Shown: positions 4,865 through 35,432 of the stretch, piece by piece
Layout: each line of letters opens with the position of its first letter
How positions within the stretch are numbered: position 1 is the stretch's first letter
Origin: a virus
Lineage: Duplodnaviria; Heunggongvirae; Uroviricota; Caudoviricetes
IMG/VR virus record: IMGVR_UViG_3300045988_150439
Strand: one strand, 5' to 3'
DNA length: 64,000 nt
Notes under the pieces: generated by a model
The model's input: only the letters and a program-made list of their open reading frames with translations
Told to the model about the DNA's origin: nothing
The model's database searches: none
Position numbers and translations under genes: made by a program

Positions 4865-4867
4865 TTA

Positions 4868-7529: not shown

Positions 7530-7572
7530 CTAATACTAGAAAACAATTTGTTTAAAAAACAAAGGAAAGCAC

Positions 7573-8913
7573 ATGACCGAACTTTGCCATACAGGACGCG
7601 GGCTGTCCGAAGAGTTTGATGAAGATTTCCAGAACAGACTGACGGCATATTTTTGTCGTGATCACGAGTTTCTTACTCGTGCGGGAGATCTGGTTGTGCC
7701 TAGCCAATTTGCCAATGCGGCCAATGCCATATTGGTTAATATGGTTTCGGGCTATTACCGTATGTACAAGAGCGCGCCCTCTTCATCTGCAATTCTGGAT
7801 ATGCTTAAGCGTGCGAAACGCGATAAGACTATCCGTGAGGAACTATTCGCCGATGTTGTTGCTGCGTTTAAGCGCATCCTTGCAGAAAAATTGTCCGATA
7901 CCTCGTACATGGTTGACCAGGTATCAACCTTCGCAAAAAGCGTAGCGTTTGATGATGCTCTGATTAAGGCTGCTGAACTGAAAGAGAAGGGCGACTTTCA
8001 GGGGGCGATGGCAATCATGGCCAAGGTTCAGCAGATTGGATCGAACGAAGCGACCGGAATCTATGACTACTACACCTCAGCAAGTGAGCGACTGAAAGCG
8101 CGTGAATATGAGGCCTCAGAGGAGTATGTGCCAAACAGTATTACAACTGGACTCCCTCTTCTCGATAGGTTGCTGTACCAAAAAGGCTGGGCAAAGCGCG
8201 AAATGGTGCTCTTCATGGGGTTCGCTAAATCCGGTAAATCGACCGCAATGGGTGAGTTTTCCATAAACGCAACGCTTGCTGGCTACAATGTTCTGTATCT
8301 CTCGCTGGAGGTTCACACCACCATTTTATCCGACCGTTTTGACGCAAGATTGTCGGAGACAGAAATGTCCAAGCTGGTGGAACGGCGCGATGAGGTTCAT
8401 CGTAAGTTGGCAGAGTTGGGAGCCACGAAGGGGATTGGTAGTTTGTGGGTGGTTGAGCGTCCGTCAGGAAGTATATCACCGGCAGATCTGGATCGTATGC
8501 TCAACAGCATGAAAGCCAATGGCATGGTGCCTGACATGGTTGTTGTCGACTACGCAGATTTGATGCGTGCCAGTTATGACCTTCGTGATGATCGCGCCAA
8601 CATTCGTAGTATCTACACCGATTTGCGTGCTCTTTATGACAAGCATAACGTTGCTGGGATCACGGCATCGCAGACAAACCGTGAAGGTGGCGCGTCAGAA
8701 GTTGCCACAATGATGCACGCTGCCGACAACATCGAAAAAGTACGTATTGCTGACCTGGTAATAACGATCAACAAAACCGAAGAAGAAGAAGCGAAAGGAG
8801 AGGCTCGTCTCTACTTTGCTGGTTCACGTAACCAGCAGGGAGGGATCAGCATTCGCGTTAAACAAAACCTCGAACAAATGCGCTTCATTGAGCGAATCTT
8901 AGACGTTACCTAA
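7573..8913 (+). CDS. DnaB-like replicative DNA helicase
   Basis: 446 aa; Walker A GFAKSGKST mid-protein, Walker B-like DMVVVDYADL, ASQTNREG region; primase gene follows. Confidence 0.7.
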   Translation: MTELCHTGRGLSEEFDEDFQNRLTAYFCRDHEFLTRAGDLVVPSQFANAANAILVNMVSGYYRMYKSAPSSSAILDMLKRAKRDKTIREELFADVVAAFKRILAEKLSDTSYMVDQVSTFAKSVAFDDALIKAAELKEKGDFQGAMAIMAKVQQIGSNEATGIYDYYTSASERLKAREYEASEEYVPNSITTGLPLLDRLLYQKGWAKREMVLFMGFAKSGKSTAMGEFSINATLAGYNVLYLSLEVHTTILSDRFDARLSETEMSKLVERRDEVHRKLAELGATKGIGSLWVVERPSGSISPADLDRMLNSMKANGMVPDMVVVDYADLMRASYDLRDDRANIRSIYTDLRALYDKHNVAGITASQTNREGGASEVATMMHAADNIEKVRIADLVITINKTEEEEAKGEARLYFAGSRNQQGGISIRVKQNLEQMRFIERILDVT

Positions 8914-15212: not shown

Positions 15213-16424
15213 TCAAAAAAGTTTTATAAATTCATAATTCTGGTCAATTAAGGATTCAATACACACCATGCAAAAATCTACATCGTTAAAATCAGGTGTG
15301 TAATATTCATCCTCATAACATTCATTTAGACCTTCAATCAATTTTTCTTTAAAAACTCCCCACGTTTCAATATGAACCATTTCCATATAAGGCGCATGTG
15401 TATGTACTTGCAATACATCCCAGGTGTCTATAACCTCGATCCGCGGCTTGCAATTAATTTTTTCTAAATATGCCCTCCCAGAATTGTAAATTTTCGACAT
15501 TGATGCCCCAAAACCTGATGGTTGGTAATGAGTGTAAATGTCATAAATTTTTTGTCCTATTCTAGGGAGTTGAGAAGCATTGGATATTTGTGGCGAATGA
15601 AAGTATCGCTCTATGGAAGAAAACGCAGAAACATTAACTAGAGTAATCGTATATGGTGCTAAAGTTCTCTCGTTCAAATTTCTACATAAAATAGCAAACC
15701 CATGGCTATTAGTCTTTTCACCGTCTGAGGACATTTTTGCCATGCTGGCTTTAATAACATTCAATTTCGAATGTAAACGAGAAGTGGAAGTCGGTTGATT
15801 ATACATTTCATCATCATACAAACATATATGAAACCCGCCAAGATGACGAAATGAGAACTTGAGTGCTTCTTCCGCAATAACTAATTTATTAATATCTAAA
15901 GGAGTAAGTGATACGTTACCTTGTAAATCATAGCAAGGTTCTAAACATAGAAAGTTTTTCTTCTGCCACACAATCATATTAAAAATAAAGTGTCTAACCA
16001 AAGGTGGCCAGTCAGGTGATATAAGTACATTGGTAATATCTCCATCAGACAAGTATGACAAGTAACTTTTTAGTTCCGCAGCATATGCCACTAGCTCAGT
16101 TCCAGCTTCCCTTGTTGGTGTTGAAAAATTTTTTAACTCAATAAGAACTAAGGATTCATTCTCTGTTGAATAAGCAACGACATCAGGTCTTAATATCTCA
16201 GATTTTGTTGCTGAGATATTTTCATCATCTGTCATTAAATGTAACAATGTTATATTCTTTAAACAAAACTGATAACTCTCCTTAATTTTTTTCTCTTCGG
16301 GTCTTTTCGGATTAAATTCATTTAATTTATCAATATTGATGATTGAATTATATAATCCATCTTGATCAGATAATTTGTCAATTATCCAATTTTGCATTTC
16401 CTTTTCGCTTAAAAATATTGACAC
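15213..16424 (-). CDS. 403-aa protein with PD-(D/E)xK-like nuclease motif; distal gene of AT-rich two-gene cassette (AbiGii position)
   Basis: GTG start; PDVVAY...SLVLIELK resembles a D..ExK restriction-endonuclease-fold motif; very AT-rich; 26 nt from upstream gene. Confidence 0.45.
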   Translation of the reverse strand: MSIFLSEKEMQNWIIDKLSDQDGLYNSIINIDKLNEFNPKRPEEKKIKESYQFCLKNITLLHLMTDDENISATKSEILRPDVVAYSTENESLVLIELKNFSTPTREAGTELVAYAAELKSYLSYLSDGDITNVLISPDWPPLVRHFIFNMIVWQKKNFLCLEPCYDLQGNVSLTPLDINKLVIAEEALKFSFRHLGGFHICLYDDEMYNQPTSTSRLHSKLNVIKASMAKMSSDGEKTNSHGFAILCRNLNERTLAPYTITLVNVSAFSSIERYFHSPQISNASQLPRIGQKIYDIYTHYQPSGFGASMSKIYNSGRAYLEKINCKPRIEVIDTWDVLQVHTHAPYMEMVHIETWGVFKEKLIEGLNECYEDEYYTPDFNDVDFCMVCIESLIDQNYEFIKLF

Positions 16425-16450
16425 TAATTAGGCTCCCGTTAAACCAAAAA

Positions 16451-17272
16451 TTAAAAATCTTGCTTTACTTTATCCATAGTCAGAATTTTGCTAATAATTG
16501 AAGATTCAAATCCATCTAAACCTGAGAGAAAGTTAATTAGCTTTTGGATATGTTGTTCTTTAGGTATAAGTATATATTTTATATCATTGAACTCAAAATC
16601 AATGCCAAACTTTGAAAATTTTGAGCTAATTTTTGCTTTGTCATCAGAAGTGATAACACGCTCCAAACTCAGACTAGGCCATAAATCACCAATAAAAGGA
16701 GCTGGCACATAACGCCACTCTTTCTCGTCTGCATATATATAATTCTCTATTGTTTTATTATCTTTTCGCTCTAGCTTGCCTCTGTAATTTTTCATATAAC
16801 GCAGTAAATTATATAGATCAGAATATTCTGCTTTCAATTTCTCAAACTCTATTCTGTTTTTGGTATCTAAATTTCCTCTAGCCTTCCAAAGCGGCACCAA
16901 CTTTTTTTTAATAAGTCGAATTCTGGCATTGTATTTAGAAAATATTTCACTGCTCTTATTCATATATAGAACTGGGTGTAGACCTTTCTTTTCCGCCCAA
17001 GACTTAGTTAGCCCAAGACCGAATTCCCCATATTTTCCGCTATGATCTCTGATTTGTGATAGTTTTATGTCACAAAACGATACCATTGGTACTGCAAACC
17101 TCCTGCGTCCCCCGACTCCTCTTATTTCCTCGCGAGCAAGAAATGGTTTAAAATATTTCTCAGCCAATATGCTATAGAAAGCATCTTCGTTTTTTGTAAA
17201 ATGAAACAACGTGGTTGGATGAAGACTATAAACAGATTCAACATTCGCATCAGGATTTTCAAGGATAGTCAT
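16451..17272 (-). CDS. AbiGi-like protein (candidate abortive-infection component)
   Basis: ORF 16451..17317; probable ATG 17272 follows AAGGTG. N-terminal LFHFTKNEDAFYSIL...PMVSFCDIKL...YGEFGLGL pattern resembles what I recall of AbiGi proteins; AT-rich. Confidence 0.4.
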   Translation of the reverse strand: MTILENPDANVESVYSLHPTTLFHFTKNEDAFYSILAEKYFKPFLAREEIRGVGGRRRFAVPMVSFCDIKLSQIRDHSGKYGEFGLGLTKSWAEKKGLHPVLYMNKSSEIFSKYNARIRLIKKKLVPLWKARGNLDTKNRIEFEKLKAEYSDLYNLLRYMKNYRGKLERKDNKTIENYIYADEKEWRYVPAPFIGDLWPSLSLERVITSDDKAKISSKFSKFGIDFEFNDIKYILIPKEQHIQKLINFLSGLDGFESSIISKILTMDKVKQDF

Positions 17273-17561
17273 TTTACACCTTGTGGAAAGCCAGTTTAGT
17301 TCTGTAAATAGTATCACACGACAGGCGGCTATTCTTCTATCAATAAAGGATAGGTAAGCACTTACTTTTTACGCGCGTTAATTGTATAGTTCTTTCGGAT
17401 ACTCACTTGAAAGGACTCAATATGGGAAATAAATGTAAACATGCGCGTCGCGCATCTCGTCAGGTGCAGAAGTCAAATCCATACATTCACGAGCACTACC
17501 ACCTCAGCTCTTTCACTAACCGCTACACGTTCCCCAGCGAAGCGCATAACGAGGCAAGGCA

Positions 17562-17807
17562 ATGACGATCACTATCTACGGACGAGATAACTGCTCATAC
17601 TGCAAACGTGCGGTCGAGCTGGCGAAGCAACTAAAGGGACATGGCTACGGTGATTATGAGTACATCGACATCACCACTGCCGGTATCGACAAGAAAAAAC
17701 TAAGTGAAATTGTTGGTAAACCGGTAGAGACTATCCCCCAGGTACTGATCGATGGCCAACCGATTGGCGGATACACAGAATTTGCTGCTTTTGCGAGCAC
17801 TCTGTAA
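17562..17807 (+). CDS. glutaredoxin-like redoxin
   Basis: 81 aa; CSYC active site near N-terminus; thioredoxin-fold size. Confidence 0.7.
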   Translation: MTITIYGRDNCSYCKRAVELAKQLKGHGYGDYEYIDITTAGIDKKKLSEIVGKPVETIPQVLIDGQPIGGYTEFAAFASTL

Positions 17808-17815
17808 TACAATAC

Positions 17816-17842
17816 GGCTCCTTTTGGGGCCATTTATTATTT
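17816..17842 (+). terminator. rho-independent terminator
   Basis: ggctcc-tttt-ggggcc hairpin followed by atttattatttg. Confidence 0.5.
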
Positions 17843-17902
17843 GTAGCTTTCATCAGCACAGCGTACACTTAGTTACGAGCCATTGAGTAGTTAAGAGGTT
17901 TT

Positions 17903-18511
17903 ATGCGTTTAGAAAATTGCCTAGAAGATATGAGTGTCATTAGCAATGCCCTTGCTACTGTGACCTCTAACGCTTCACGCTTTTCAAACGCAAAGCCTAC
18001 AGCTAAATCTGGGCGTGATTTTATTGAACCGCGTGGATATCGACGCTTCCGTGGCACGATGAAGCCCTCTGCGAAATTCACAGGATTCAAAACACAAACC
18101 TATGTGAGCACTGCGGCTATTCCTGTTCAAGAGAACCGCGATGCGGCACAGCTGGCAAAGATTGAAAGCAAGCTCGCAAAATTGACGGCGAAACACGTTC
18201 GCTTAGCCCATGCCATCTCTGGATGGAAAGCGGAAAAGATTCGCAGCAACTTCGGTGAAAGTCGTTACGAAGAACTGAAGAACGTTGACCTGACCATTCG
18301 TGGTTTGGAGGGATTCGTTAACAAGTTGATTCGCGACTCTGAGCAACCTCATCCATATTTGAAACGCTTGAGCGATTCTGTAACTGAGTATCGTTTAGCT
18401 ATCTCTGATCTGCTATTGATTTTAAATCAGTGTTTTAACGACGTAAACGTCATCGAATCGCAGACTGGCCTCATTGATGAGGACGTCTTCGCCAACTTCT
18501 CATTCCATTGA
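17903..18511 (+). CDS. hypothetical protein (possible antitoxin partner of downstream YafO-like gene)
   Basis: 202 aa ORF, Ala/Lys-rich central helix; ends 10 nt before the downstream gene. Confidence 0.4.
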   Translation: MRLENCLEDMSVISNALATVTSNASRFSNAKPTAKSGRDFIEPRGYRRFRGTMKPSAKFTGFKTQTYVSTAAIPVQENRDAAQLAKIESKLAKLTAKHVRLAHAISGWKAEKIRSNFGESRYEELKNVDLTIRGLEGFVNKLIRDSEQPHPYLKRLSDSVTEYRLAISDLLLILNQCFNDVNVIESQTGLIDEDVFANFSFH

Positions 18512-19104: not shown

Positions 19105-20208
19105 ATGAAAAATAGCTTTGACAGAGCACGCGCAGCGGAGAACACCTCAAAAGAGGCGATTGAGTATCTCGAAAGAGCATCTCAAATGCAGGCCGTTATG
19201 ATCTCGCAGGTTAGCAATGACATGAGATTCTCAGACGCATTCATGTTATTCACTCGCTTATCTCTGCTAATAACAAGACGTCGGCCAGAGATCGCTGTTC
19301 ACTGTATTTTGATACATGTTTTGCCGCACATTGCTGATGTAAAAGTAAGTGACATTAATAGGTTCATGGTGAACCAACTGGTCAACCCACTAATACTGGA
19401 TGGCAAAATTGTTATGGGCCGCCGCGTTTTCTCTCTGATGAAGCAGTTCCTTAGCTGGTGCGCCTTCCAGGGGATGATAGACGTGTCACCGTTAAACGAT
19501 ATGTCACTTAACAAAGTTGCCGGTGGCGCAAAGCCCACACCTCGCGAGCGGAAGCTGACCGACGCAGAGGTATGGGTGTTCTGGAATATATGGGACTACT
19601 TCAATGTGTGTGCTGGTACAAAATGGGCGGCAAGGCTATGTCTTGTATCCGCAAGACGACCTGATGAAGTACTGCGGGCTAAAAAAAGTGAGTTCAATCT
19701 TAAGCGTGGGGTTTGGAATCAAGGCAAAAGAAACAAGTCAGCACGTGAGCATTCGCTGCCTTTAAGCACATTAATGCGCACATGCATTGAAGAGTTGTTC
19801 GAATACGGTAAAGATAGCCAGTGGCTCGTTCCTTCGAATAAAAAAATCGGGAAAGACCTTCCTATGTCTAAAGTGGCAATAGCCCAGGCATTACGTCGTA
19901 TTCTGGAACGACCAGAACTGATGGAGCTTGAGCCATTTACACCCCGAGATTTGCGCCGTACTGCGCGTAGTTACTTCCCAGCATTAGGCATAAGCCAGGA
20001 GGTATCACGTAAAATCATGAACCACAGTCTTGAGGGGATAGATCGGGTCTACGACCGGCACGATTATATGGACGAGATGCGAGACGCCTTAGAAAGTTTC
20101 TCGACGTACATCGCATCAATCGTAGAGCAACCGGATTTAGACGAAATTGACCACAAATTTAAGGGAGATCGTCTATCAACAGAGCTTATTCGTGTAAATT
20201 TTTCATAG
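19105..20208 (+). CDS. tyrosine site-specific recombinase
   Basis: 367 aa; C-terminal catalytic region with RDLRRTARS, HSLEG, and Tyr motif VYDRHDY. Confidence 0.7.
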   Translation: MKNSFDRARAAENTSKEAIEYLERASQMQAVMISQVSNDMRFSDAFMLFTRLSLLITRRRPEIAVHCILIHVLPHIADVKVSDINRFMVNQLVNPLILDGKIVMGRRVFSLMKQFLSWCAFQGMIDVSPLNDMSLNKVAGGAKPTPRERKLTDAEVWVFWNIWDYFNVCAGTKWAARLCLVSARRPDEVLRAKKSEFNLKRGVWNQGKRNKSAREHSLPLSTLMRTCIEELFEYGKDSQWLVPSNKKIGKDLPMSKVAIAQALRRILERPELMELEPFTPRDLRRTARSYFPALGISQEVSRKIMNHSLEGIDRVYDRHDYMDEMRDALESFSTYIASIVEQPDLDEIDHKFKGDRLSTELIRVNFS

Positions 20209-20589
20209 AGACTTTATGGCCTCAACAACCTTTTGTGATGCGCCTTTCTCTTTACCGAATCGCTCGTTATATGCAGCAAGAACCTGTTTTTCGTCCTCGT
20301 TAAGAGGAGCAGTGCCTTCTTTGTATAAAAATGCTGCGAGTTCGGGTTGACGTTCTTCCAGCACCATCATCATAAGACGACTTGGCTCAATACCCAGTGC
20401 CAGCGCCAGCGGACGAACCTTATCGATAGGCAAAGGAATTTTGCCGCTTTTAATTAAAGAAAGGTTGTTGGCGTTTTTATACCCAATTGTTTTGGCTATC
20501 TGGGCCTGGCTCATAGGTGAGGATTCAATCAACCCTGCGATAAAAGCAGCGTAGCGACTTTCTATAAATTCAATCTTGTTATCAGACAT
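20203..20589 (-). CDS. helix-turn-helix DNA-binding regulator (XRE-like)
   Basis: 128 aa; HTH segment MSQAQIAKTIGYKNANNLSLIKSG; convergent with recombinase gene. Confidence 0.6.
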   Translation of the reverse strand: MSDNKIEFIESRYAAFIAGLIESSPMSQAQIAKTIGYKNANNLSLIKSGKIPLPIDKVRPLALALGIEPSRLMMMVLEERQPELAAFLYKEGTAPLNEDEKQVLAAYNERFGKEKGASQKVVEAIKSL

Positions 20590-20840: not shown

Positions 20841-21053
20841 ATGAAAACCACTATTTCCAGCCTAATCGCTCTTGAGATGGGACACGTACAGAAATTAGCT
20901 GATGAGTGTGTAGCTGACATCCTCACCGATCTGCCGAATGAGCAGATTCAGGTTGGTGTGAATGACACAACTGGCTTTATATTCGAACTTAACAACAAAC
21001 GCTTCACGCTTCTCAATACCGGCTCCTGGTCTTTAGCCGTCAGAATCTGTTAA
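20841..21053 (+). CDS. hypothetical protein (70 aa)
   Basis: ORF only; followed by inverted repeat ctgcgcgaa / ttcgcgcag. Confidence 0.35.
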   Translation: MKTTISSLIALEMGHVQKLADECVADILTDLPNEQIQVGVNDTTGFIFELNNKRFTLLNTGSWSLAVRIC

Positions 21054-21151: not shown

Positions 21152-23260
21152 ATGTCTAAAAAACGTTCCATCAAAGAGGTTCAGGACTTCCGTGACAGTG
21201 TAAAACGAGTAGTCGCTCTCCTTTCAGGCAAAAACATCCCTGTTGCAGAACGAGGGGACGACGCTTATGTACGCTATAACGATGATGGAGAGCCAATTCT
21301 CGTAAACATCCCATCAATCCCGGATAACGCAACACCGGCATTGATGAATGCTGTGCGCGGATTTCTCGATCATGAGGTTGCTCACATTTTGTTTACCGAT
21401 ATTCGTGTGTCCAACAAAATGAGAGAAAAAGGACGCGTTCCTTCCTGGTCGCTATGGAATGCCTTAGAAGACGTGTTCATCGAGCGAAAAATGGGTCAGG
21501 TCTTTAACGGAACAAGACGTAATCTGATGGCAACTCAGCGCCTTATAATCGAAAAAGTCTTTAAACCAAAGGCTTCAGAGGCTATTGCTTATTGTGGCAA
21601 AGATCAGCGCGCGCTTTTTCTAAACTTCTTTCTCTGTCCGGTTGTAAGAGCCTGGGATGGCCAAGCACCGTTCGTAGATTTCATGGATGAATATTGGCCT
21701 GTCATTGAGAAACCAATTTCATTATTAAAAGAACATGGTATCGATGTGGCCATGCGTAACATGTCTTGCACCGAGGATTGTGTAAAGGTGGCTGCGACCA
21801 TAGCTAAGATCCTCAAAGACACTGAAAGTGAAAGCAAAGGTAAGGAGTCAGCTCCGGGAAAAACTTCCGATCCTTCAGACGCTGACCAGACGGATGCCTC
21901 TGGAGAAAATAATGAAGATAACGAAGATCATGAGACACCCTCAGCGTTAGATAATCACAAATCTATCAAATCAGAATCACACAGTAAGCACAAACATGAT
22001 AATAACGACAGTGATGATTCAGATAATTCTGAATCATCAGAAACAATATTCAATGATACAGAAAATGATAAAGAGGTATCAGATTCTGATGCTTCTGATA
22101 ACGCGGCGTCAGAATCATTAACCGCTGACCACGAAAAAAGAAAAACGACAGAAGACGGCTCTTCAGATATTCCAACTCCGTCAAAAATGAGTCTGGAAGA
22201 GGCTTTAGAGGTGCTGGATAGCATAGAAGATGAAGTCGGAGGCATGACAGAAGATGCTCTATCCGAAACGATTAAAAGCGAGTTAACAGAAAGCTCGAAA
22301 AGCGAATACAGGCCATACAATCGCTCATACGACTTCATCGGCTCGATTGATCAGGCAGAAGCCCATATCAAACGGCTTATTAAAACATTCTCCGATATTG
22401 ATTTAGGTGGATATCCAATCAGCCGTTATCGCATCGTTCCTGAAGGCAACCAACTCTTCGACAAATATATTGAAAAGCACCTTTCGTCAGGTGTTTCGTC
22501 GACGCTGGCAAAAGACCTGGAACGTGCAATAGCAAGCAGAAACAGAGTTCAGTTTATACCTGGCCAGCGTCGGGGGCGCATTCATGGTTCAAGTATCTAC
22601 AGATTAACAATGAATGATGATCGCGTGTTTCGTAAAAAAGAAGAATCTAAAGCCGTTAACGCCTGTGTTCAACAAGTGATTGATTTATCGGGTTCAATGA
22701 GTGGCGAAACGATAAAACTAGCTCTTGCAAGTGCATATACCATCGCCGATGCACTTGATCGAATAAATGTTCCCAACATTATCACCGGCTTCACTACATT
22801 TGGCAATCATATGGCAGCAGGAGAACTTAAGGCTATCAAATATGAGTTCTCTCGCTTTGAATCTTTAATGCTACCTATCATCAAAAATTGGAATGAAAAA
22901 GCAAATTCTCGCGAAGTTCGCTCACGTATGGGGTGCGTAGGCTACACATTCCCACTTCTTAATAACGTGGATGGTGAAAGCATAGCCAGCCTTGCATCGT
23001 TATTTTCCGGTCGCTTGGAGGACAGGAAGATCATGCTTGTTCTGAGCGATGGCGAGCCGTGGGCTGTTGGGAGAGGTTTTGACGCTCATTTGCGTTCGGT
23101 TGCGAAGCAAATTGAAACGCAGACTGACATTGATTTGATGGCAATTGGCATCATGACTGACGCACCGGAGAGATTTTACTCAAATCATGCCCTGGTAACG
23201 AGCGTTGATAGTCTTGGTTCATCTGTAGTTACTGAACTATCTCGTATCATTTTGAAGTAA
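21152..23260 (+). CDS. CobT-like VWA-domain protein
   Basis: 702 aa; long Ser/Asp/Glu-rich acidic linker; C-terminal VWA with MIDAS motif DLSGSMSG; AAA+ partner follows. Confidence 0.6.
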   Translation: MSKKRSIKEVQDFRDSVKRVVALLSGKNIPVAERGDDAYVRYNDDGEPILVNIPSIPDNATPALMNAVRGFLDHEVAHILFTDIRVSNKMREKGRVPSWSLWNALEDVFIERKMGQVFNGTRRNLMATQRLIIEKVFKPKASEAIAYCGKDQRALFLNFFLCPVVRAWDGQAPFVDFMDEYWPVIEKPISLLKEHGIDVAMRNMSCTEDCVKVAATIAKILKDTESESKGKESAPGKTSDPSDADQTDASGENNEDNEDHETPSALDNHKSIKSESHSKHKHDNNDSDDSDNSESSETIFNDTENDKEVSDSDASDNAASESLTADHEKRKTTEDGSSDIPTPSKMSLEEALEVLDSIEDEVGGMTEDALSETIKSELTESSKSEYRPYNRSYDFIGSIDQAEAHIKRLIKTFSDIDLGGYPISRYRIVPEGNQLFDKYIEKHLSSGVSSTLAKDLERAIASRNRVQFIPGQRRGRIHGSSIYRLTMNDDRVFRKKEESKAVNACVQQVIDLSGSMSGETIKLALASAYTIADALDRINVPNIITGFTTFGNHMAAGELKAIKYEFSRFESLMLPIIKNWNEKANSREVRSRMGCVGYTFPLLNNVDGESIASLASLFSGRLEDRKIMLVLSDGEPWAVGRGFDAHLRSVAKQIETQTDIDLMAIGIMTDAPERFYSNHALVTSVDSLGSSVVTELSRIILK

Positions 23261-23355
23261 TTAAAACAGCCTTAAAGATAAGTAACTACTTACCATAGTT
23301 AATGGTATATTTATATAAGAACTTGAACGCTCATTAGAGAACAAAGGAAAAGCGC

Positions 23356-24591
23356 ATGACTACTACTGCACTGCAAAATGAAAAAAATCATTCTGATTAC
23401 CTTGTTTGCAAGTGGTGCGGCAAATCATTTCACTATTTTAAGTCCCATGTAGCCAATGGTAATTGCGAGGGCATTCCTGAGTCAGTAAAAGATGCCGATC
23501 CTGACACCGTACTGAAAATGTACACAACGCAGTTTCCAGATGAACCAACGCTATCGAAAAAGGCACTTGATGCAATTCAAGCTAAACGTGCCGAGCAAAA
23601 AAGCGAAATGGCGAAATCTTCTGGCTTGACCAGTAGCCCAGGCTACACAGGCACAGTTGAGTACAAGACAGATCTGGTCGCAGCTCACGAACTGCTAAAC
23701 GTAACGGTGGAAGAACTCGGAACAAAACGTGGGACGCCGCTCATGGTTAGCGTCAACGTCAATACGCCGTATCCAGAGTTCGTTCCAGAAGTGAAGAAGG
23801 GCTACGTATATGGCGACTTCGAACTGATCAAAGATATTTTCATGATGCTTGAACTTGGCATACCTGGCTATTTGTGGGGTCATGCAGGAACAGGCAAATC
23901 GTCATTGCCTACACAGCTATGTGCTTTGCTCAATCGTCCGTTGATCCGTGCCCAACATACAGCATCAATGGAAGAGGCACATGTTACGGGGCAAATTCTG
24001 GCGCGTGATGGCTCTACGTATTTCGAACCTGGCTTGCTTGCGCTCGCAATGAAGCATGGCTGGGTTTACCTCGCGGATGAATACGACTTTGCGTTTCCAC
24101 AAATTCTTGGCGTGTATCAGCCAGTGCTGGAAGGTGAGGCGTTGGTCATCAAAGAGGCAACTCCAGAATGGCGTCGCATTACTCCGCATGAACGGTTTGC
24201 TTTCATTGGCACTGGCAACACAAACGGTTCTGGTGATGAAACCGGCTTGTACCAGGGTACAAACATCCAGAACGCCGCGAACTTTTCGCGTTTTGGCATC
24301 GTTTCGAATGTGAAATACATGAGCAAAGACGCAGAGATCAACATGTTGATAAATGCCGGTATCGTGGATGAATACGCTGAAAAGATGGTTAAGTTTGCCG
24401 GTATCGTTCGCGATGGATACGAAGAACACCTTATCAGTCAGCCAATTGGCCCTCGTGAACTTTTGTTGTCGGCCAAGATTGGAATGATGCGAGGCGACTT
24501 TGTGACAGGTATTGAGCGTTCTTTCATTAACAAACTCCCTTCAGCTTCTGCACAAGCGGCTCGTGAAGTTGTTCAAAAAATATTTGGTTAA
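23356..24591 (+). CDS. MoxR/CobS-like AAA+ ATPase
   Basis: Walker A GHAGTGKSS, Walker B VYLADEYD; N-terminal Cys cluster CKWCGKSF. Confidence 0.65.
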   Translation: MTTTALQNEKNHSDYLVCKWCGKSFHYFKSHVANGNCEGIPESVKDADPDTVLKMYTTQFPDEPTLSKKALDAIQAKRAEQKSEMAKSSGLTSSPGYTGTVEYKTDLVAAHELLNVTVEELGTKRGTPLMVSVNVNTPYPEFVPEVKKGYVYGDFELIKDIFMMLELGIPGYLWGHAGTGKSSLPTQLCALLNRPLIRAQHTASMEEAHVTGQILARDGSTYFEPGLLALAMKHGWVYLADEYDFAFPQILGVYQPVLEGEALVIKEATPEWRRITPHERFAFIGTGNTNGSGDETGLYQGTNIQNAANFSRFGIVSNVKYMSKDAEINMLINAGIVDEYAEKMVKFAGIVRDGYEEHLISQPIGPRELLLSAKIGMMRGDFVTGIERSFINKLPSASAQAAREVVQKIFG

Positions 24592-24771
24592 TCGTGCGTA
24601 AAGGATGTTTCGGCTCTCTTATCGCTGCTTCTGAAACTGGCAAGGCTTGTCTGGGGTGTCCAGACAAGCCCGATTGTCACCAATCAGCAAAAGAAGTTGC
24701 GATTTCGATGTATGGGAAGTTCGTAGGCTTCCCCAATGACAAAATCAAAAAAACCAGAAAGGTAAAAACAC

Positions 24772-27700
24772 ATGAAGGCACTGATGGTTCGAACTGACTT
24801 CTCACTTGGGGAGTCGGCTCTAAAAGCAGAAAACGCGGTGAAGATTGCCAGAGAAGCTGGCTACACCGCTGTAATTTCAGCAGATAGCATGAATATTGCA
24901 AGTGTTATTCCACTACAACGTGCCGCTGGTGACGACATGGCGGTTATTTGTGGTGTGAAACTAAACATTGTTGATGATCCCACATACGAGCACCGGGCTA
25001 AACTTGCTAAAGAATCTATGAGATGTATGGAATCATTAGAGCGGGGACGCAACTACTCGTTTACCGCTCTAATTAAAAATGAGCAAGGATATCGCGACAT
25101 CTGCGAACTAATGACGGCGGCCAACACACGAGAACAGTTCTACTTTGTACCGCGTCTCTCGCTCGAACAGTTGGTTTCTACATATGCCAAAGGCAACATC
25201 ATCCTGCTTACTTCCGACATCGGTAGCGTGTTCCAACGCAACGATTTTGCAAAAATCATAAGCACACTGATTACAGCGGGTGGAAAAGACAACTTCTATA
25301 GTGTGGTTTATCCGCACCCTACCCCATTCTACGACCAGATTAACGTCCGGGCGATGAAAGTCGCCAGCGCACTGAAAATAGAGCCAGTAGCGTTTTATCC
25401 CGCTTATTACGAATCGATCGACGATGCAGACATTAAAGACATTGCGCACATGGTTACGAACAACATCAAAATCGACCAGCCGCATCGTCTGCGTATCCCC
25501 CACCAGCGAGATAACGCCATCAATGGTCGTCGCCATCTCCTTGAGGCGCTTAAAGCCTTCTCCGTTCGCATGGATGTGCCGGTAACAGCTGCAATGGCCT
25601 CAACAACGCAGGACTCCATTATCGATGCCTGCACATGGCGCTGGCATGAATTGCCACCAGCACTGCCCAAGATGGCAGACGACGAACCTGCAACGCTGAT
25701 GAAACTGGCTGTTGAAGGGCTGCGTAAACGTCTTACCACAAAAGAGTTTGGATACACACCACCTGCTTCTGAGAACAGGGTTTATGTTGAGCGGCTAAAG
25801 TACGAAATGGACACGCTGACTCGCCTGGGATTCTGTGGTTACTTCCTGATGGTACGCGATCTGATGAATCATAGTCGTGAAACTGGCATTCCCGTTGGGC
25901 CTGGTCGTGGTTCCTCTGCCGGTTCTCTGGTGGCGTGGTGCATAGGCATAACCAACGTCGACCCAATCCGTCACGGTCTTCTGTTTGAGCGTTTCATCAA
26001 CCCTGAGCGTCTCGACTTGCCGGATGCGGACTTGGACTTCAGCCAGGCACGTCGCCATGAGGTGATCGAGTATCTGAATGAACGCTACGGCGAAGATTAC
26101 GTTGCAGGCATTCCGAACTTCACCTATCTGGGCGCGGCATCTGCGCTGCGTGACACTGCACGTATTTACGGTGTCGATGCTGCGGATATGGCGGTATCCA
26201 AAGAGTTCAAGAATATGGAGGACGACAGCCTGTCTCTGGAAGAGCTGCGCGAGCAACTGGCCAGCCTGGACAAATACGCCACGAAAAACCCGGAAGCGTT
26301 CAAAGCGGCGTGTAAGCTGCAAAGCCTGATGCGTGGTTTTGGTCGTCACGCTGCGGGGATGATCGTCGCTGGCGTTCCATTAGTAGAGCGCACGCCCGTC
26401 GAGCTGCGTGGCAATGCTCGATGTATTGCGTTCGATAAACGTTACTGCGAGGCGATGGGGCTGATTAAGTTGGACGTTCTCGGTCTGGCAACACTCGATC
26501 TTCTGGATAGCGCGAAACGCTACATCAAAGAGAGCACCGGTGAAGACATCAATCTCGACGCTATCCCACTGGACGATCGCAAGGTTCTGGATGGGTTCGC
26601 TGCAGGGTACACGCAGGGCGTATTCCAGCTGGAGTCCGGCCCCATGCGTAAGCTGCTTAAAGATCTGGGCGGTGGCATCGAGCCAATGAGTTTCAAAACC
26701 GTTGTCGCAACTACCGCCCTCTTCCGACCGGGACCGATTCAATCCGGCATGTTGGATGACTATGTTTCCGTTGCGAAAGGATTTATGACGCCTACATCAC
26801 TACATCCTGTCTTGGATGAACTGACCTCTGAAACAAATGGAGTGATTCTCTATCAGGAACAAACGATGAACGCAACAAGGCTTCTTGCTGGTTTCACAAT
26901 GGCTGAGGCGGATGGTGTGCGTTCAGCAATCGGTAAGAAGAACATGGAAAAGATGAGGAGCATGGGTGAGAAATTTGTCATTCAGGCTCAAGCTGGGTGG
27001 ATCGACGTAGAGCTTGAAAATGGCGCAATACAACGGATTCATCGCGCAGAACATTTTAAATGCGAGGACGGTACTCTGAGGACAGTTGAAGAGGCGTTGG
27101 AGCATGGAGTGAAGCTGCCAATGCCAGTTGTGCGCGTTACAACGTCACATCCGGGTCTGTCTGAGACGAAGGCAAAAGAGATATGGACTGCATTTGAGAA
27201 AAACGGAGCCTATCAGTTCAATAAATCACACTCCGTTGCTTATTCTTTAATCAGTTATCAGTCTATGTGGCTAAAGACGCACTACCCTGCTGAGTTCTTC
27301 GCAGCTGCGCTCACCATTCTGGGCGAGGATAAGCATCAGGGGCTGGTGAAGGATGCGCTGACCTATGGCATTCGCGTATTGCCACCAGACGTTAATGTGT
27401 CATCTAACCGAATTGAGATCCGCACACTCGAAGACGGCAGTCAGGCACTGTATGCGCCATTCTCTGCTGTGAAAGGCTGTTCTGAAAATGGTTGTCAGGC
27501 AATTATGCGTGCGCGTGAGAAAGTTGGTGGCAAATTCGAGTCAGTGGCACAATTCGATGAAGCGGTCGAGAAGCGTGCATGTAACAGTCGTGTACGCGAG
27601 TCGCTTCATAAAGTAGGGGCTTTTGCGTCAATTGAGCCAGGCAGTCTGCCAGCAACTGATCCTGAACGACTGCGCGACCAGGCTGAGCTGATGGGCAATC

Positions 27701-28290
27701 TCATCATTGACGCTGTTAAAGCATCACGTCCGTTCGAAATGAATCCTAAGCGTTCTGCCGAAATCAACGTACTCATGACACGTATGGCGGTTGAAATGGG
27801 CTTGGGTGAGGAGTTGATACGCCCGACTATTGGTATTAAACCCAAAATCATGATCATTCTGGACAATGCGAACGGCAATGACGCTCGTACCGGCTACTTC
27901 ATGGAGAACGGATACGACGACTTTAAGGCAAAACTACTGACAGTTGGAGATCTGCGCATGGGCGATCTTTATGTCACGGGTGTTTGTAAGAAGGTTAAGG
28001 ACAAAGAGAAAGACTATACCAAAGACGAGATAGGCCAGTTCACAGACTTTATGCGGGAAGAAATTAATCTTGTACGACCAACCTACATTTTGACGTGTGG
28101 TAGTCGTTCAACCGCACTATTTAACAATAAGAGTAAACCATCAGATCTGATTGGTCGTAAGGAGTACTTCCCAGAGCTTGATGCAACCGTCTTCTACGGA
28201 TTTAACCCGAATATCCTGTACTTCCGACCGGAAGAAGGAGAGCGACTGGAGGCCATTCTGGCTGATATCGCGGAGACAATAAATAAGTAA
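24772..28290 (+). CDS. dnaE: DNA polymerase III alpha-like (family C) replicative polymerase
   Basis: 1172 aa; N-terminal PHP-like region; core motif GFCGYFLMVRDLMNHSRETGIPVGPGRGSSAGSLVAWCIGITNVDP and LDLPDADLDF. Confidence 0.85.
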   Translation: MKALMVRTDFSLGESALKAENAVKIAREAGYTAVISADSMNIASVIPLQRAAGDDMAVICGVKLNIVDDPTYEHRAKLAKESMRCMESLERGRNYSFTALIKNEQGYRDICELMTAANTREQFYFVPRLSLEQLVSTYAKGNIILLTSDIGSVFQRNDFAKIISTLITAGGKDNFYSVVYPHPTPFYDQINVRAMKVASALKIEPVAFYPAYYESIDDADIKDIAHMVTNNIKIDQPHRLRIPHQRDNAINGRRHLLEALKAFSVRMDVPVTAAMASTTQDSIIDACTWRWHELPPALPKMADDEPATLMKLAVEGLRKRLTTKEFGYTPPASENRVYVERLKYEMDTLTRLGFCGYFLMVRDLMNHSRETGIPVGPGRGSSAGSLVAWCIGITNVDPIRHGLLFERFINPERLDLPDADLDFSQARRHEVIEYLNERYGEDYVAGIPNFTYLGAASALRDTARIYGVDAADMAVSKEFKNMEDDSLSLEELREQLASLDKYATKNPEAFKAACKLQSLMRGFGRHAAGMIVAGVPLVERTPVELRGNARCIAFDKRYCEAMGLIKLDVLGLATLDLLDSAKRYIKESTGEDINLDAIPLDDRKVLDGFAAGYTQGVFQLESGPMRKLLKDLGGGIEPMSFKTVVATTALFRPGPIQSGMLDDYVSVAKGFMTPTSLHPVLDELTSETNGVILYQEQTMNATRLLAGFTMAEADGVRSAIGKKNMEKMRSMGEKFVIQAQAGWIDVELENGAIQRIHRAEHFKCEDGTLRTVEEALEHGVKLPMPVVRVTTSHPGLSETKAKEIWTAFEKNGAYQFNKSHSVAYSLISYQSMWLKTHYPAEFFAAALTILGEDKHQGLVKDALTYGIRVLPPDVNVSSNRIEIRTLEDGSQALYAPFSAVKGCSENGCQAIMRAREKVGGKFESVAQFDEAVEKRACNSRVRESLHKVGAFASIEPGSLPATDPERLRDQAELMGNLIIDAVKASRPFEMNPKRSAEINVLMTRMAVEMGLGEELIRPTIGIKPKIMIILDNANGNDARTGYFMENGYDDFKAKLLTVGDLRMGDLYVTGVCKKVKDKEKDYTKDEIGQFTDFMREEINLVRPTYILTCGSRSTALFNNKSKPSDLIGRKEYFPELDATVFYGFNPNILYFRPEEGERLEAILADIAETINK

Positions 28291-28296: not shown

Positions 28297-28322
28297 AAAC
28301 CCGCCTGTTGGCGGGTTTATAA
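28297..28322 (+). terminator. rho-independent terminator
   Basis: aaacccgcc-tgtt-ggcgggttt followed by ataaag. Confidence 0.6.
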
Positions 28323-30790: not shown

Positions 30791-31819
30791 ATGTCTAAGA
30801 CATTACTTGATTTGCTTAACAAAACTCGTGAAGACATTGCCGCCAAACGTGGCAACAACGTTGATCTGACTCGCTTAAAAGACGGCGTCAACTATATCCG
30901 CATCTTCCCGAATAAAGACGACCCAAACGGTAAGTTCTTCCAGACTTTCGGTATGCACTACGTTAAGTATCAGAACGAGGAAGGTAAAGAAGCAACCAAC
31001 GCTTATATTTGTGAGCAACATACTCACGGTCGCGCTTGTCAGCTATGCGAAATGGTTATGGAAGGTCGCGCTCGTCACAAGGGTAACAAAGCAATGGAAG
31101 AACGCATCGGTCAAATGCGTGCCACTCCTCGCTACCTGGTCAACGGCATTCTTTCTGCTCGTGAGGATTTCGCAGATGCTGAGAAATGCCAGTTAATCGA
31201 GCTGCCGTCTACTGTATTCGATGATATCTGCAAAGCAATCACCGAAGACATCGCTGATGATATCGGCAATCCACTGAGCAAAGAGGAAGGCTACGCATTC
31301 CTGATTAAACGTACTGGCTCTGGTCGCGATACCAAATATGACGTCTCGCCTAAGCGTAAAGTCTACAAAGGCGATATCGAAGATAAATTCTGGAACACCC
31401 AGCATGATCTGATCGCATACGCAAATCAGGCTGATGAAACTCGTCTTCTGTCGACAGTTCGCACTATGGGTCGTCTGATTGGTATCGCTGCACCAACTGC
31501 CGCAGCATCTGCACCAGCAATTTCCTCAACCGCGAAAACATCGGCTGCGGCACTACCTGGATTTGGCTCTGTCACTGGTCATACAGAAGGAGCGACGGCT
31601 GTAGCAACCGCGCACACACCGGCTTCTGAACCAACCAGTCTGGTTGATGAAGAAATCCTCCGTGCCGTTGAAACTGAATTTAAACCAGAAGCAAGTTCCG
31701 CTGCCGTTGCCGTATCAGTCAAAGAGTCTGAAGCAGTCGCAGCGACATCTGTAGCAACCGCATCTGCGACGGAAGATGAAGGTCTGGATGACCTACTGAG
31801 AGAGCTGGACTCTCTGTAA
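30791..31819 (+). CDS. single-stranded DNA-binding protein (gp32-like)
   Basis: 342 aa; Cys/His cluster CEQHTHGRACQLC, Ala/Ser-rich linker, acidic tail DEGLDDLLRELDSL; conserved acaaggagaaacacATG start context. Confidence 0.55.
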   Translation: MSKTLLDLLNKTREDIAAKRGNNVDLTRLKDGVNYIRIFPNKDDPNGKFFQTFGMHYVKYQNEEGKEATNAYICEQHTHGRACQLCEMVMEGRARHKGNKAMEERIGQMRATPRYLVNGILSAREDFADAEKCQLIELPSTVFDDICKAITEDIADDIGNPLSKEEGYAFLIKRTGSGRDTKYDVSPKRKVYKGDIEDKFWNTQHDLIAYANQADETRLLSTVRTMGRLIGIAAPTAAASAPAISSTAKTSAAALPGFGSVTGHTEGATAVATAHTPASEPTSLVDEEILRAVETEFKPEASSAAVAVSVKESEAVAATSVATASATEDEGLDDLLRELDSL

Positions 31820-31835
31820 TCCCATTACGTGACCA

Positions 31836-31864
31836 GTAAGGCGTCTACGGACGCCTTACTTTTT
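31836..31864 (+). terminator. rho-independent terminator
   Basis: gtaaggcgtc-tacg-gacgccttac followed by ttttt, just after the SSB stop. Confidence 0.6.
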
Positions 31865-33092: not shown

Positions 33093-35432
33093 ATGGCAAA
33101 AGGAAAATCCGCACTGGCACTTGCTCTGAAAAAGAAAATCGGTAGCAACGACGAAATTCAGAAAGTAACTCATTGGATTGACACAGGCTTTCCTCCGTTA
33201 AACAAAGCTATTTCCGGTCGTTACGATGGCGGTTTCCCATGTGGTCGTATCGTAGAAGTATTCGGGCCACCAAGCGCGGGGAAATGTGTTACCGCAGACA
33301 CCATGCTGCTGACGGAGCGTGGAATGGTAACAGTGAAAGAGTTGTTTGAGATTGAAGGGTACAAAGCGACATGCACTACTCGCGATGTAGAGCATAACGT
33401 TGGACTCATCAATGAAAATGGCGTGATAGAGAAGACCTCACACCTGACATGGAACAACCGTCGCAAATTCAAGCGTATTAAGCTGGCATCAGGCGGTTAT
33501 ATCGAGGCTACGTTCCGTCACCCAATCCGTGTGGTTGACGACTTAGGTAATGTCGTCTGGCGACATGCTGAAAAAATCAGTGTAGGCGACACGATTCCTT
33601 CAATGGTTGGCACACATCAATTCGGCGATCAGCACCTGGATGCCAATATCGCAAAACTGATGGGCTATTTAATTGCTGACGGATACGTGGCCTCTGAAAA
33701 TTCAGTGAATTTTTCTAACACAGATCCTTTCATCAAGGATGAGTACTACCGCCTCATTTCGCTGGTATCAGACAAGATGCCAGTTACGAGAAAACATAAC
33801 GGCTCGGAAGACCATGTGCTGTTTAGCAAAGAGGTGCGTTCGCTGCTTTTTAAAGAATATGGTCTGGAGTATGAGAAAGCTGCTGGCAAGCAGGTTCCGT
33901 TGAGTGTGCGTCGCGCCAATAGCGAGGCTCAAATTGCATTCCTTCGCGGCTACTTTGAGCTGGAATGCCACGTCAATGATGGTCGCTGCATTGAGGTTGT
34001 GAGCGCGAGTGGGCTGCTGCTACAGCAAATTCGCCTCATGCTCCTGAATCTGGGGATTACGTCAACTATCTCTGAAAAACACGTCGCGGGTTATGAAAAT
34101 ACATATTACCGGCTGTCATTCAGTGGCTCTAATTACGACCTTTTTCTGTCAACGATTGGTTTCGAATCTCCGGCACGTTTATCAGTGGCAACCAAACGGG
34201 ACATTGGTTTTGACCGCACTTACTCAGGCTATGTTCCGCACATCAGCGGCTTAGTGAAATCACTCTACGAGTCGCTCACCAAGACCACCCGTGAAGACTA
34301 CGCTCTGGTAGACCACGTTATTGGCCGCGGCGATCGTGTCGGAATAGACAAACTGCGAGAAATCTATGTCTCCTTCATTGGCAGAAAGAATCGTTTTAAC
34401 GAGCATCTGTTTGCACAACTGGCAGCGGTAATTGGCTCTAACTTGTTCTACGACGAAGTCGTGGCTATTGAGGAAGGTGAAGCACCAACGTTCGACGTAG
34501 CGATGCCGGAAACACACTCTTTCTGGTCTAACGGGATTATCAGCCACAACACATTCCTTGCAACAGCAGCGATGATCTCCGCACAGAAACAAGATGGTCT
34601 GGCGGTATTCCTCGATCATGAGAACAGTTTTGACGTTGGCCTGGCTGTAGCCAATGGCCTGAACGCAGATGAGGATGACGGTCAGTGGGTATACAAGCAG
34701 CCAGATACCTTCGAAGACTCTGTAGAGTTGATCGGCACAATACTTAAATTGGTTCGTGATGAAGAGCTTATCCCCGAATCAGCACCTATCTGTATCGTGG
34801 CTGACTCTCTTGCGTCTATGGTTCCGAACTCCAAAGCCGAGAAGTTCGAAAAGATGGCTGAAGGCACTGCCAAAGACAAAGATCAGCTAAACATGAACGA
34901 CAATACGGCACTGGCTCGTGCGACGAGTGCGAACTTCCCTACTCTGGCTTTGTGGGCACGCAAATACAACGCCTGCATCATCTTCTTGAATCAGGTTCGC
35001 ACAAAAATCGGTGTAATGTTTGGCGACCCTACTACGTCGCCAGGTGGAGATTCACCGAAGTTCTACGCTTCTGTACGTATCCGTCTTGGTGCATCGGTGA
35101 TGAAGGATGGTAAAGAGAAGATCGGCCAGGACGTAGGCGCAGAATGCATCAAAAACAAAGTTGCACCACCGTATGGCAAATGCACCTGGAAATTCTACTT
35201 CGATCCTACTCGTGGCCTCGACGTTATCGAATCGCTCGTCGAGTACATGCTGGAAGAAGGATACCTGCCAAAGAACGCCAGCGGGCGAGTTGAAATTGGT
35301 GACAAGAAATACACCAAATCGCAGATCGTCGAGATGTATCGGGAGAAGCCATTAGCAGAAATCATTGCTGCGTTACAGACGATAGATGACCGACGAGAGA
35401 AGACATCACCAACAGAAGAACTAGAAGATTAA
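33093..35432 (+). CDS. recA: RecA-family recombinase interrupted by an intein
   Basis: 779 aa; exteins (64 + 293 aa) match RecA: P-loop GPPSAGK|T, IIFLNQVRTKIGVMFGDPTTSPGGDSPKFYASVRIRLG. Confidence 0.8.
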   Translation: MAKGKSALALALKKKIGSNDEIQKVTHWIDTGFPPLNKAISGRYDGGFPCGRIVEVFGPPSAGKCVTADTMLLTERGMVTVKELFEIEGYKATCTTRDVEHNVGLINENGVIEKTSHLTWNNRRKFKRIKLASGGYIEATFRHPIRVVDDLGNVVWRHAEKISVGDTIPSMVGTHQFGDQHLDANIAKLMGYLIADGYVASENSVNFSNTDPFIKDEYYRLISLVSDKMPVTRKHNGSEDHVLFSKEVRSLLFKEYGLEYEKAAGKQVPLSVRRANSEAQIAFLRGYFELECHVNDGRCIEVVSASGLLLQQIRLMLLNLGITSTISEKHVAGYENTYYRLSFSGSNYDLFLSTIGFESPARLSVATKRDIGFDRTYSGYVPHISGLVKSLYESLTKTTREDYALVDHVIGRGDRVGIDKLREIYVSFIGRKNRFNEHLFAQLAAVIGSNLFYDEVVAIEEGEAPTFDVAMPETHSFWSNGIISHNTFLATAAMISAQKQDGLAVFLDHENSFDVGLAVANGLNADEDDGQWVYKQPDTFEDSVELIGTILKLVRDEELIPESAPICIVADSLASMVPNSKAEKFEKMAEGTAKDKDQLNMNDNTALARATSANFPTLALWARKYNACIIFLNQVRTKIGVMFGDPTTSPGGDSPKFYASVRIRLGASVMKDGKEKIGQDVGAECIKNKVAPPYGKCTWKFYFDPTRGLDVIESLVEYMLEEGYLPKNASGRVEIGDKKYTKSQIVEMYREKPLAEIIAALQTIDDRREKTSPTEELED
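33285..34550 (+). mobile_element. intein with LAGLIDADG homing-endonuclease domain (422 aa) inside recA
   Basis: Starts with Cys (CVTADTM), ends His-Asn before Thr +1; dodecapeptide motifs LMGYLIADGYV and FLRGYFELECHV. Confidence 0.75.

Follow-up and report, generated by a model that had tools for sequence, protein, structure and literature searches.

The window, the 64,000-nucleotide stretch of IMG/VR virus record IMGVR_UViG_3300045988_150439 that was analysed as a whole, is an SSU5-type phage-plasmid of Escherichia and carries adjacent cobT-like and cobS-like genes at positions 21152-24591. We think it probable, though far from settled, that their products form a viral motor-adaptor system of the CobS/CobT type that works during the lytic cycle, is driven by ATP and acts on a client other than CobN. 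As judged by sequence comparison, the viral clade to which the pair belongs differs consistently from cellular CobST in an HExxH motif, the charge of the shaft, the N-terminal extensions of the ATPase and the usual gene order. The initial annotation had paired a VWA protein with a MoxR/CobS-type AAA+ ATPase. Both open reading frames (ORFs) were found exactly where it placed them, on the + strand with 95 nucleotides between them, and the family matches agree with it.

21152..23260, + strand: CobT-like adaptor of 702 residues, with a zincin-like N-domain, an acidic disordered linker and a C-domain of the VWA type bearing a MIDAS (metal ion-dependent adhesion site).
23356..24591, + strand: CobS-like MoxR-class AAA+ ATPase of 411 residues (AAA_5, phrog_249).

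The 702-residue protein matched Pfam CobT over residues 9-294 (E 3e-27) and CobT_C/VWA over residues 492-701 (E 2e-81), and its PHROGs match was phrog_1576 (995 bits, 'unknown function'). The 411-residue protein matched Pfam AAA_5 (E 2e-15) and phrog_249 ('porphyrin biosynthesis'). The hidden Markov model assignment that had been proposed as a check, together with the closest solved homologues, puts both proteins in the CobS/CobT branch of MoxR/VWA systems, a narrower placement than a generic MoxR pair. The closest solved homologues of both are in Brucella melitensis CobSTN (PDB 9ujv, 9uka), whose CobT, the nearest solved chain to the 702-residue protein (profile E 2e-63), has the same three-part adaptor plan. 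The AlphaFold model of the CobT-like protein has a mean predicted local distance difference test score (pLDDT) of 78, rising to about 90 in the N-domain, which is built of helix alpha1, a three-stranded sheet (31-34, 39-42 and 48-53) and a helical bundle. Brucella CobT_N, which has this topology (alpha1, three-stranded sheet, bundle), has been likened to peptidase M48C (bioRxiv 10.64898/2026.07.21.739949). The following elements of the adaptor carry the comparison with cellular CobT.

21371..21385, + strand: HEVAH (H74-H78), a zincin-type HExxH motif in helix 62-81.
21467..21484, + strand: EDVFIE (E106, D107, E111) in helix 98-117, the next helix but one; candidate third metal ligand or catalytic support.
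22535..22651, + strand: shaft-equivalent segment, basic (GQRRGRIHG), aligned to the Q373-R413 shaft region in Brucella CobT numbering.
22682..22696, + strand: MIDAS motif DLSGS (D511, S513, S515), aligned with DNSGS of Brucella CobT (D422/S424/S426).

At 50% identity and E <= 1e-3 the family fell into 5,092 clusters, of which the best 150 keep the layout at 30-58% identity. Clade statistics were drawn from 146 representatives, or 147 sequences with the window protein. HExxH was present in about 98% of the 146. In the alignment of 147 sequences, H74, E75 and H78 were kept in 145, 145 and 144, E106 in 146, D107 in 145 and E111 in all; D511, S513 and S515 of the MIDAS were present in 147/147, as were the NxDGE and SDG motifs. 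The N-domain has few invariant positions, which include D73, H74, E75 and H78 (DHEVAH) as well as E106, D107 and E111 and which cluster on the HExxH motif. Unlike these proteins, five of five cellular CobTs from alpha- and beta-proteobacteria lack HExxH anywhere and read GD[SA]xAL at the aligned position; E106 and E111 are kept in cellular CobT too. The motif reads HECYH in Vibrio podovirus ICP2, HEAGH in Roseobacter phage CRP-810 and HEISH in Gordonia phage GMA3. The 'peptidase' of cyanophage P-SSM2 has HEVGH, an acidic tract and the MIDAS DWSGS (profile E 1.7e-22).

The shaft gave a second difference, being basic in the viral proteins (GQRRGRIHG) and acidic in cellular CobTs (DLEEGYLD); among SSU5-type relatives the shaft-equivalent segment was invariant. 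Gene order was cobT-cobS in SSU5-like phages, ICP2 and P-SSM2, and cobS-cobT in five of five cellular loci as well as in CRP-810 and GMA3. The window genes belong to the same group as the phage genes known as 'cobS' and 'cobT/peptidase' (PHROG 249 and 1576/459; the T4-like cyanophage core; ICP2 gp41/gp42), and the P-SSM2 and ICP2 pairs have an identical architecture and, like the window pair, sit in an early or replication block. The earlier statement that the pair recurs in large phages holds in that many phages carry it, but carriage is not confined to large phages (ICP2 is 50 kb). Its companion statement, that the function of the phage pair is unknown, agrees with a study that used cobS as a marker and described its role in infection as unknown (PMC9983427). 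As separate observations, three alphaproteobacterial cobS-cobT loci (L003, L091 and L093) adjoin BolA-family and J-domain (DnaJ-like) genes and not other cob genes, and a 'conserved hypothetical protein' at 31364-31855 of AB571791.1 (Salmonella Typhimurium, 127,710 bp) matched the N-domain only (residues 1-187, 33% identity, E 4e-10); the latter may be a stand-alone zincin-like domain on another replicon.

Homology shows the 411-residue protein to be a MoxR-class AAA+ ATPase, catalytically intact by its sequence and expected to assemble into a hexameric ring. Its best sequence match in PDB was Brucella CobS (residues 142-411 against 39-315, E 5e-26). A structural model (pLDDT 84) had NorQ and CbbQ as its top Foldseek matches, at a template modelling (TM) score of about 0.86.

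23407..23448, + strand: CKWCGKSFHYFKSH, a CxxC-x4-H-x4-H knuckle, predicted beta-hairpin plus helix.
23878..23901, + strand: Walker A GHAGTGKS, intact.
24076..24087, + strand: Walker B DEYD (D241, E242), intact.
24217-24219, + strand: sensor-1 N288, intact.
24289-24291, + strand: arginine finger R312, intact.
24454-24456, + strand: sensor-2 R367, intact.

Across 30 homologues, with identities reaching down to 44%, the catalytic motifs did not vary, and their positions align with the Brucella CobS residues named in bioRxiv 10.64898/2026.07.21.739949; the catalytic residues of the two ATPases are the same. Ahead of the ATPase core lies an N-terminal extension of about 100-140 residues, which sets the protein apart from cellular CobS. 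Walker A starts at residue 126-367 in the viral ATPases compared to 66-88 in cellular CobS. The extension carries the knuckle, of which C18, C21, H26 and H31 were at least 90% conserved in the same 30 homologues. The knuckle was also found in Pseudomonas phage nickie and in three distant relatives (L084-L086), and not in ICP2, CRP-810, GMA3 or any cellular CobS compared; among phage pairs it is specific to the SSU5/nickie-like lineage of about 100 kb. The CobS-like ATPases of CRP-810 (1827-3680) and GMA3 (6011-7681), of 617 and 556 residues, have extensions of about 300-360 residues ahead of Walker A, that of GMA3 opening with a CxxC…CxxH pattern.

The usual reading of such genes in the literature is that they are auxiliary metabolic genes, the phage CobS/CobT joining host CobN and boosting cobalamin, for example for B12-dependent ribonucleotide reduction. 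Cobaltochelatase subunits are indeed the closest characterised homologues, and hijack of host CobN by viral CobST has been proposed for bacterial and archaeal tailed viruses (PMC8651126); it could hold where hosts have CobN, as in cyanobacteria, rhizobia and haloarchaea. In the window, however, both proteins scored 6-10 fold under the NCBIfam equivalog cutoffs: 70.6 bits against 759.05 for TIGR01651 (CobT), with the C-terminal part alone aligning, and 87 bits against 558.55 for TIGR01650 (CobS). No ORF of CobN size was present within the window, where the largest besides the pair and DnaE encode RecA with an intein, the alpha subunit of ribonucleotide reductase (RNR) and SbcC. The RNR of the element is class I with an R2 subunit, so its own nucleotide reduction is independent of B12.

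The host argues in the same direction. Production of B12 in E. coli required imported cobN, cobS and cobT plus the entire hydrogenobyrinic-acid pathway (Fang et al., PMC6249242); E. coli has only the salvage branch, and its native 'CobT' and 'CobS' are unrelated nucleotide-loop enzymes (PMC6249242). Since E. coli lacks both CobN and the corrin substrate, the hijack model of PMC8651126 cannot apply in this host. Moreover, the domain that would contact CobN has diverged too far: a tblastn search with the cellular CobT N-domain recovered only cellular CobTs and 0 of about 1,000 phage-plasmid copies. Escherichia, Salmonella, Klebsiella, Yersinia and Vibrio cholerae all have phages or phage-plasmids with the pair, and none of them is known to use the aerobic CobN route. 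In myo-cyanophages cobS is a core gene, roughly single-copy and depth-independent (PMC9983427), unlike a metabolic gene tuned to the environment. Recruitment of host CobN is thus a highly improbable explanation of the pair, and cobaltochelatase activity here is very unlikely. The view that the role is not cobalamin synthesis, already taken in the initial annotation, is upheld by the equivalog scores, the absence of CobN from the window and a host with neither CobN nor substrate.

The names themselves have added to the confusion, as Salmonella and E. coli CobT (dimethylbenzimidazole phosphoribosyltransferase) and CobS (cobalamin synthase) share only their gene names with the pair. This collision accounts for the wrong product names in phage Cyrano, where the pair (OV696614.1, 20153-23592) is labelled 'dimethylbenzimidazole phosphoribosyltransferase' and 'cobalamin synthetase'. 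The same misnaming of cobS occurs in a cyanophage gene table (PMC9983427).

The genomic setting of the pair suggests when it may act. As had been noted from the sequence, the pair lies directly upstream of a DnaE polymerase gene, which starts 180 nucleotides past the end of the cobS-like gene.

24772..28290, + strand: DnaE-type polymerase III alpha with a C-terminal tail like family-4 uracil-DNA glycosylase (UDG); downstream neighbour of the pair.

The cobT-like gene was directly upstream of the cobS-like gene in 79/79 related loci, and dnaE lay within 2.5 kb downstream in 69/71. Relatives from marine and other metagenomes whose ATPases are 45-48% identical keep the order CobT-like, CobS-like, DnaE-UDG; up to two small genes precede DnaE-UDG, and gp32, a 5'-3' exonuclease and RecA follow it. 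The same arrangement was seen in Pseudomonas phage nickie. A profile scan of viral contigs with the CobS alignment returned close SSU5-type relatives only, and the distant contexts were taken from other contigs and annotated phage records. The SSU5-type arrangement is one lineage's conserved replication module and, alone, is weak evidence of functional coupling. In ICP2, genes for primase, helicase and a family-A polymerase come just downstream of the pair. In P-SSM2 the pair lies between gp46/47 and gp45/gp44, the clamp and clamp-loader genes marking T4-type replication machinery, with a polymerase that we take to be family B, as in T4-like phages. Placement in the replication modules of unrelated lineages, of which at least ICP2 uses another polymerase, is more telling than the SSU5-type order and suggests a link with replication. 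As ICP2 lacks DnaE as well as any RNR, neither enzyme can serve as a universal partner, and both were rejected as the universal client.

Expression was assessed from the published RNA-seq table of an E. coli LF82 lysogen carrying Cyrano. The cobT-like gene (7.8), the cobS-like gene (6.7) and dnaE (10.1) were at local background, with the repressor at 95.8 (about 10 times that background), RepA at 133 and HicB at 141 (PMC9928086). The pair and dnaE are thus silent in the plasmid state, which fits a function in the lytic cycle and speaks against plasmid maintenance. A role in maintenance or copy number of the prophage-plasmid would suit an element that replicates as a plasmid and carries the pair near integrase and repressor genes. 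However, the pair stays at background in the lysogen while RepA, repressor and toxin-antitoxin genes are on, and it also occurs in phages without a plasmid phase (ICP2, P-SSM2 and nickie). We give this explanation almost no credence, and it was rejected on the LF82 lysogen transcriptome. Remodelling of the replisome or of nucleoprotein, the role first suggested for the pair, draws support from the gene neighbourhood and the co-silencing with dnaE, but these are suggestive only and DnaE is not the universal partner; a replication role is plausible.

An alternative by analogy is that the pair is a metal-insertion chaperone for another metalloenzyme, as are NorQ/NorD (iron, nitric oxide reductase), CoxD/CoxE and BchI/BchD; candidate clients would be the RNR R2 centre and the PHP domain of DnaE. 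Most characterised MoxR-VWA pairs mature metal centres (bioRxiv 10.64898/2026.07.21.739949), and for both proteins NorQ and NorD rank among the best structural and top Foldseek matches. Class I RNR and PHP-domain DnaE are both present in the element, and the HExxH/Glu site could carry a metal for delivery. NorQ/NorD and CbbQ/CbbO also follow the same logic as the window pair, which combines one VWA adaptor, a hexameric motor and a client. They differ in that their adaptors have no zincin-like N-domain, that their clients, nitric oxide reductase and Rubisco, are absent from the element, and that their sequence similarity to the window ATPase is low (E 1.7e-6 to 1.7e-3). Furthermore, no metalloenzyme is common to all carriers, since ICP2 lacks both RNR and DnaE and the replication proteins of P-SSM2 are T4-type, and CbbQ/CbbO offer a precedent for pure protein remodelling by the same class. 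We consider a metal-insertion role unlikely.

The two folded domains of the adaptor are joined by a linker that the initial annotation had singled out as a low-complexity acidic tract.

21818..22186, + strand: acidic Ser/Asp/Glu-rich disordered linker, residues 223-345 (123 residues).

The tract is real, as composition, entropy and predicted disorder agree. It contains 24 Ser, 21 Asp and 15 Glu, has a net charge of -24, and consists of 6% hydrophobic residues compared to 35% in the remaining protein. Its entropy falls to 2.8 bits (30-residue windows), against 3.5-4.1 in the two folded domains, and AlphaFold predicts it to be disordered (pLDDT about 33). The description of the linker as extreme did not survive comparison. 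It is shorter and less acidic than in most relatives, ranking among the 146 representatives 34/146 in length and 10/146 in acidity, and 146/146 in Ser/Thr as the most Ser/Thr-rich; the clade median is 154 residues with 39% Asp+Glu, against 124 residues and 29% here in that comparison. Brucella and Sinorhizobium CobT have linkers just as acidic. The linkers of Sinorhizobium, Cereibacter and Sphingomonas CobT contain 41-44% Asp+Glu, and that of Brucella CobT includes '…EEPSDDEEQNDEQTPDSDENEEGGDENQEGSDSAESEESDSSSDEGEQ…'. In Brucella CobT some 90 residues of disordered linker separate the N-domain from the C-domain (bioRxiv 10.64898/2026.07.21.739949); compared to cellular CobT, the window linker is about twice as long. 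By composition, the acidic linker is a hallmark of bona fide CobT and no peculiarity, and its simplest reading is a flexible acidic tether joining the two docking domains of the adaptor. A comparable arrangement exists in the eukaryotic ribosome-assembly protein Midasin/Rea1, whose AAA+ modules are the next-best sequence matches of the ATPase after CobS. Midasin/Rea1 has a long D/E-rich acidic tract ahead of its ring-docking MIDAS domain. It differs from the pair in being one giant chain with six fused AAA+ modules and no zincin-like domain. Among SSU5-type relatives the linker is hypervariable in sequence and length (proteins of 649-790 residues) between strongly conserved flanking domains. 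No tandem or direct DNA repeats were found in the linker, so slippage does not account for the length variation.

Variability of this kind could also be expected if the pair served host takeover or counter-defence, a motor-adaptor-protease inactivating a host protein (nucleoid, restriction/defence or replisome) and not a phage protein. In each lineage examined the pair lay among the early genes, the N-extensions of the ATPase vary by lineage as they would for host-specific targeting, and the linker is hypervariable. In addition, a profile of the viral N-domain alone gave a short weak match to the anti-CRISPR AcrIIA26 (PDB 9zq6_B, E 0.002, 20.8 bits). The match spans 'LNxxEDxFIE…G..N' (window 21440-21520; N103, E106-D107 and E111) and, being short, may be due to chance. 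The PADLOC models gave no significant match, only 18 bits to DrmE (residues 340-533, from inside the linker) for the adaptor and none for the ATPase, and both folded domains are strongly conserved across very different hosts, unlike arms-race proteins. This alternative overlaps with the motor-adaptor system proposed here, differing only in the owner of the client, and we regard it as quite unlikely.

The mechanism that we propose for the motor-adaptor pair draws on the Brucella CobST structures. By homology, a hexameric ring of the CobS-like protein is the motor and the CobT-like protein its adaptor. By analogy with Brucella, the adaptor N-domain would dock peripherally on the small subdomain of the ATPase, and the VWA/MIDAS domain would sit on the ring face with the shaft entering the pore; the acidic linker would tether the two domains. 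The pair would be made in the lytic cycle along with the phage DnaE and, powered by ATP, would take hold of a protein client through the MIDAS and remodel it. Because HExxH and the downstream Glu are invariant, and HExxH is lost in cellular CobT, the client is probably also bound through a metal at this site, or cleaved there. The variable N-extension of the ATPase may aid targeting. Our best guess for the client, given the recurrent placement of the pair in replication and recombination modules, is a protein that must be cleared, activated or matured as phage DNA replication begins.

Several observations weigh against this proposal or against parts of it. Phage nickie has lost HExxH and reads DSEISK there, so not every member requires catalysis at the site, and HExxH could hold a metal without any proteolysis. 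Two fold searches with the CobT-like model were dominated by the VWA domain and did not confirm a zincin fold for the N-domain; the N-domain sequence matched no peptidase family in Pfam, and its profile did not reach the Brucella CobT N-domain in PDB. The zincin reading draws on the shared topology and on the published likeness of Brucella CobT_N to M48C. Alignment of the viral N-domain with Sinorhizobium CobT_N by hhalign was collinear, at a probability of only 25%. The 146 representatives may be of viral or cellular origin, and the absence of CobN from the host was taken from the literature (PMC6249242). Neither CRP-810 nor GMA3 has a polymerase near the pair, which lies among early genes there, and the link with replication is guilt by association. 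Finally, no experimental work on any viral CobS/CobT was found in the searchable literature, which is incomplete.

A bolder form of the proposal is that the viral CobT-like protein is an active zinc metalloprotease on the CobS-like ring, which in many unrelated phages captures its substrate by the MIDAS at the start of replication, remodels it and cleaves it at HExxH, cellular CobT being a catalytically dead descendant of the same scaffold, re-used to serve CobN. Such an ATP-dependent protein-processing machine would be a previously unrecognised one. We regard this form as possible but doubtful.

Over the 7.3 kb round the pair, identity reaches 96% with phage Cyrano, 82% with Salmonella phage SSU5 and up to 98.6% with E. 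coli plasmids, and the region matched 783 plasmid records (Klebsiella, Escherichia, Enterobacter, Yersinia, Salmonella and others). The features that flank the pair are as follows.

20203..20589, - strand: helix-turn-helix (HTH) repressor-like gene, divergent from the operon of the pair; weak match to Pfam HTH_19, below the curated cutoff.
20841..21053, + strand: 70-residue ORF, the first after the divergent intergenic region; 'hypothetical protein' in close relatives.
24594..24797, + strand: Cys-rich 67-residue ORF (…CLGCPDKPDCH…), unannotated; fills the gap between the cobS-like gene and dnaE and overlaps the dnaE start.
28297..28318, no strand assigned: GC-rich hairpin just past the dnaE stop; the sole strong terminator-like structure in cobT-cobS-dnaE.

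The counterpart of the HTH gene in phage Cyrano is annotated 'putative repressor', and the 70-residue ORF was present in 75/83 related loci. The 67-residue ORF gave tblastn matches in 78/83 related loci at 79-100% identity and no match in a Pfam search; its wide detection may be mere DNA conservation, and its status as a gene is uncertain. In distant relatives the corresponding gap holds one or two larger genes, one of them weakly Sigma70_r2-like. The hairpin was flagged on the minus strand, in a terminator scan that overall was not above chance; neither the promoter nor the terminator scan exceeded chance, and the operon is not defined by them. dnaE is probably co-transcribed with the pair. 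The C-terminus of DnaE (residues 1053-1168; 27928-28275, + strand) resembles family-4 UDG (TIGR00758, E 5e-7), and the fusion (PF03167) also occurs in the distant relatives L084, L085 and L086.

Further large ORFs of the window encode a helicase, a primase, a ligase, an intein-bearing RecA, SbcC, and class I RNR plus its R2 subunit. The RecA homologue (33093-35432, + strand, 779 residues) is split by a LAGLIDADG intein (Pfam RecA, Intein_splicing and LAGLIDADG_3). Two stretches, 4001-6000 and 16001-18000, have a G+C fraction of 0.37, against about 0.45 elsewhere. The first contains a KAP-family P-loop NTPase (4907-6610) and the second a 288-residue minus-strand ORF (16451-17317), just upstream of which lies a 403-residue minus-strand ORF (15213-16424) with no Pfam match. 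The corresponding region differs in the closest plasmid, and the stretches may be accessory or defence cargo.

The genes as such are not new, since thousands of records already annotate them, and there is nothing unusual about the linker. The specific retention of HExxH in the viral clade, together with its other differences from cellular CobST, seems to be unreported, although earlier reports are possible given how incomplete the searchable literature is. The comparison suggests that the chelatase adaptor may derive from a peptidase-like scaffold through loss of the metal site. The E. coli phage-plasmid copy offers a tractable host without corrin synthesis, inducible relatives (Cyrano, PhiR41_1 and SSU5) exist as cultured phages, and the HExxH, MIDAS and Walker B residues are suited to clean point mutants. 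In marine viromes, cobS and its partner are among the commonest genes to be scored as 'auxiliary metabolic genes'. Inferences from viromes that viruses boost B12 would be wrong if the viral clade is not a cobaltochelatase.

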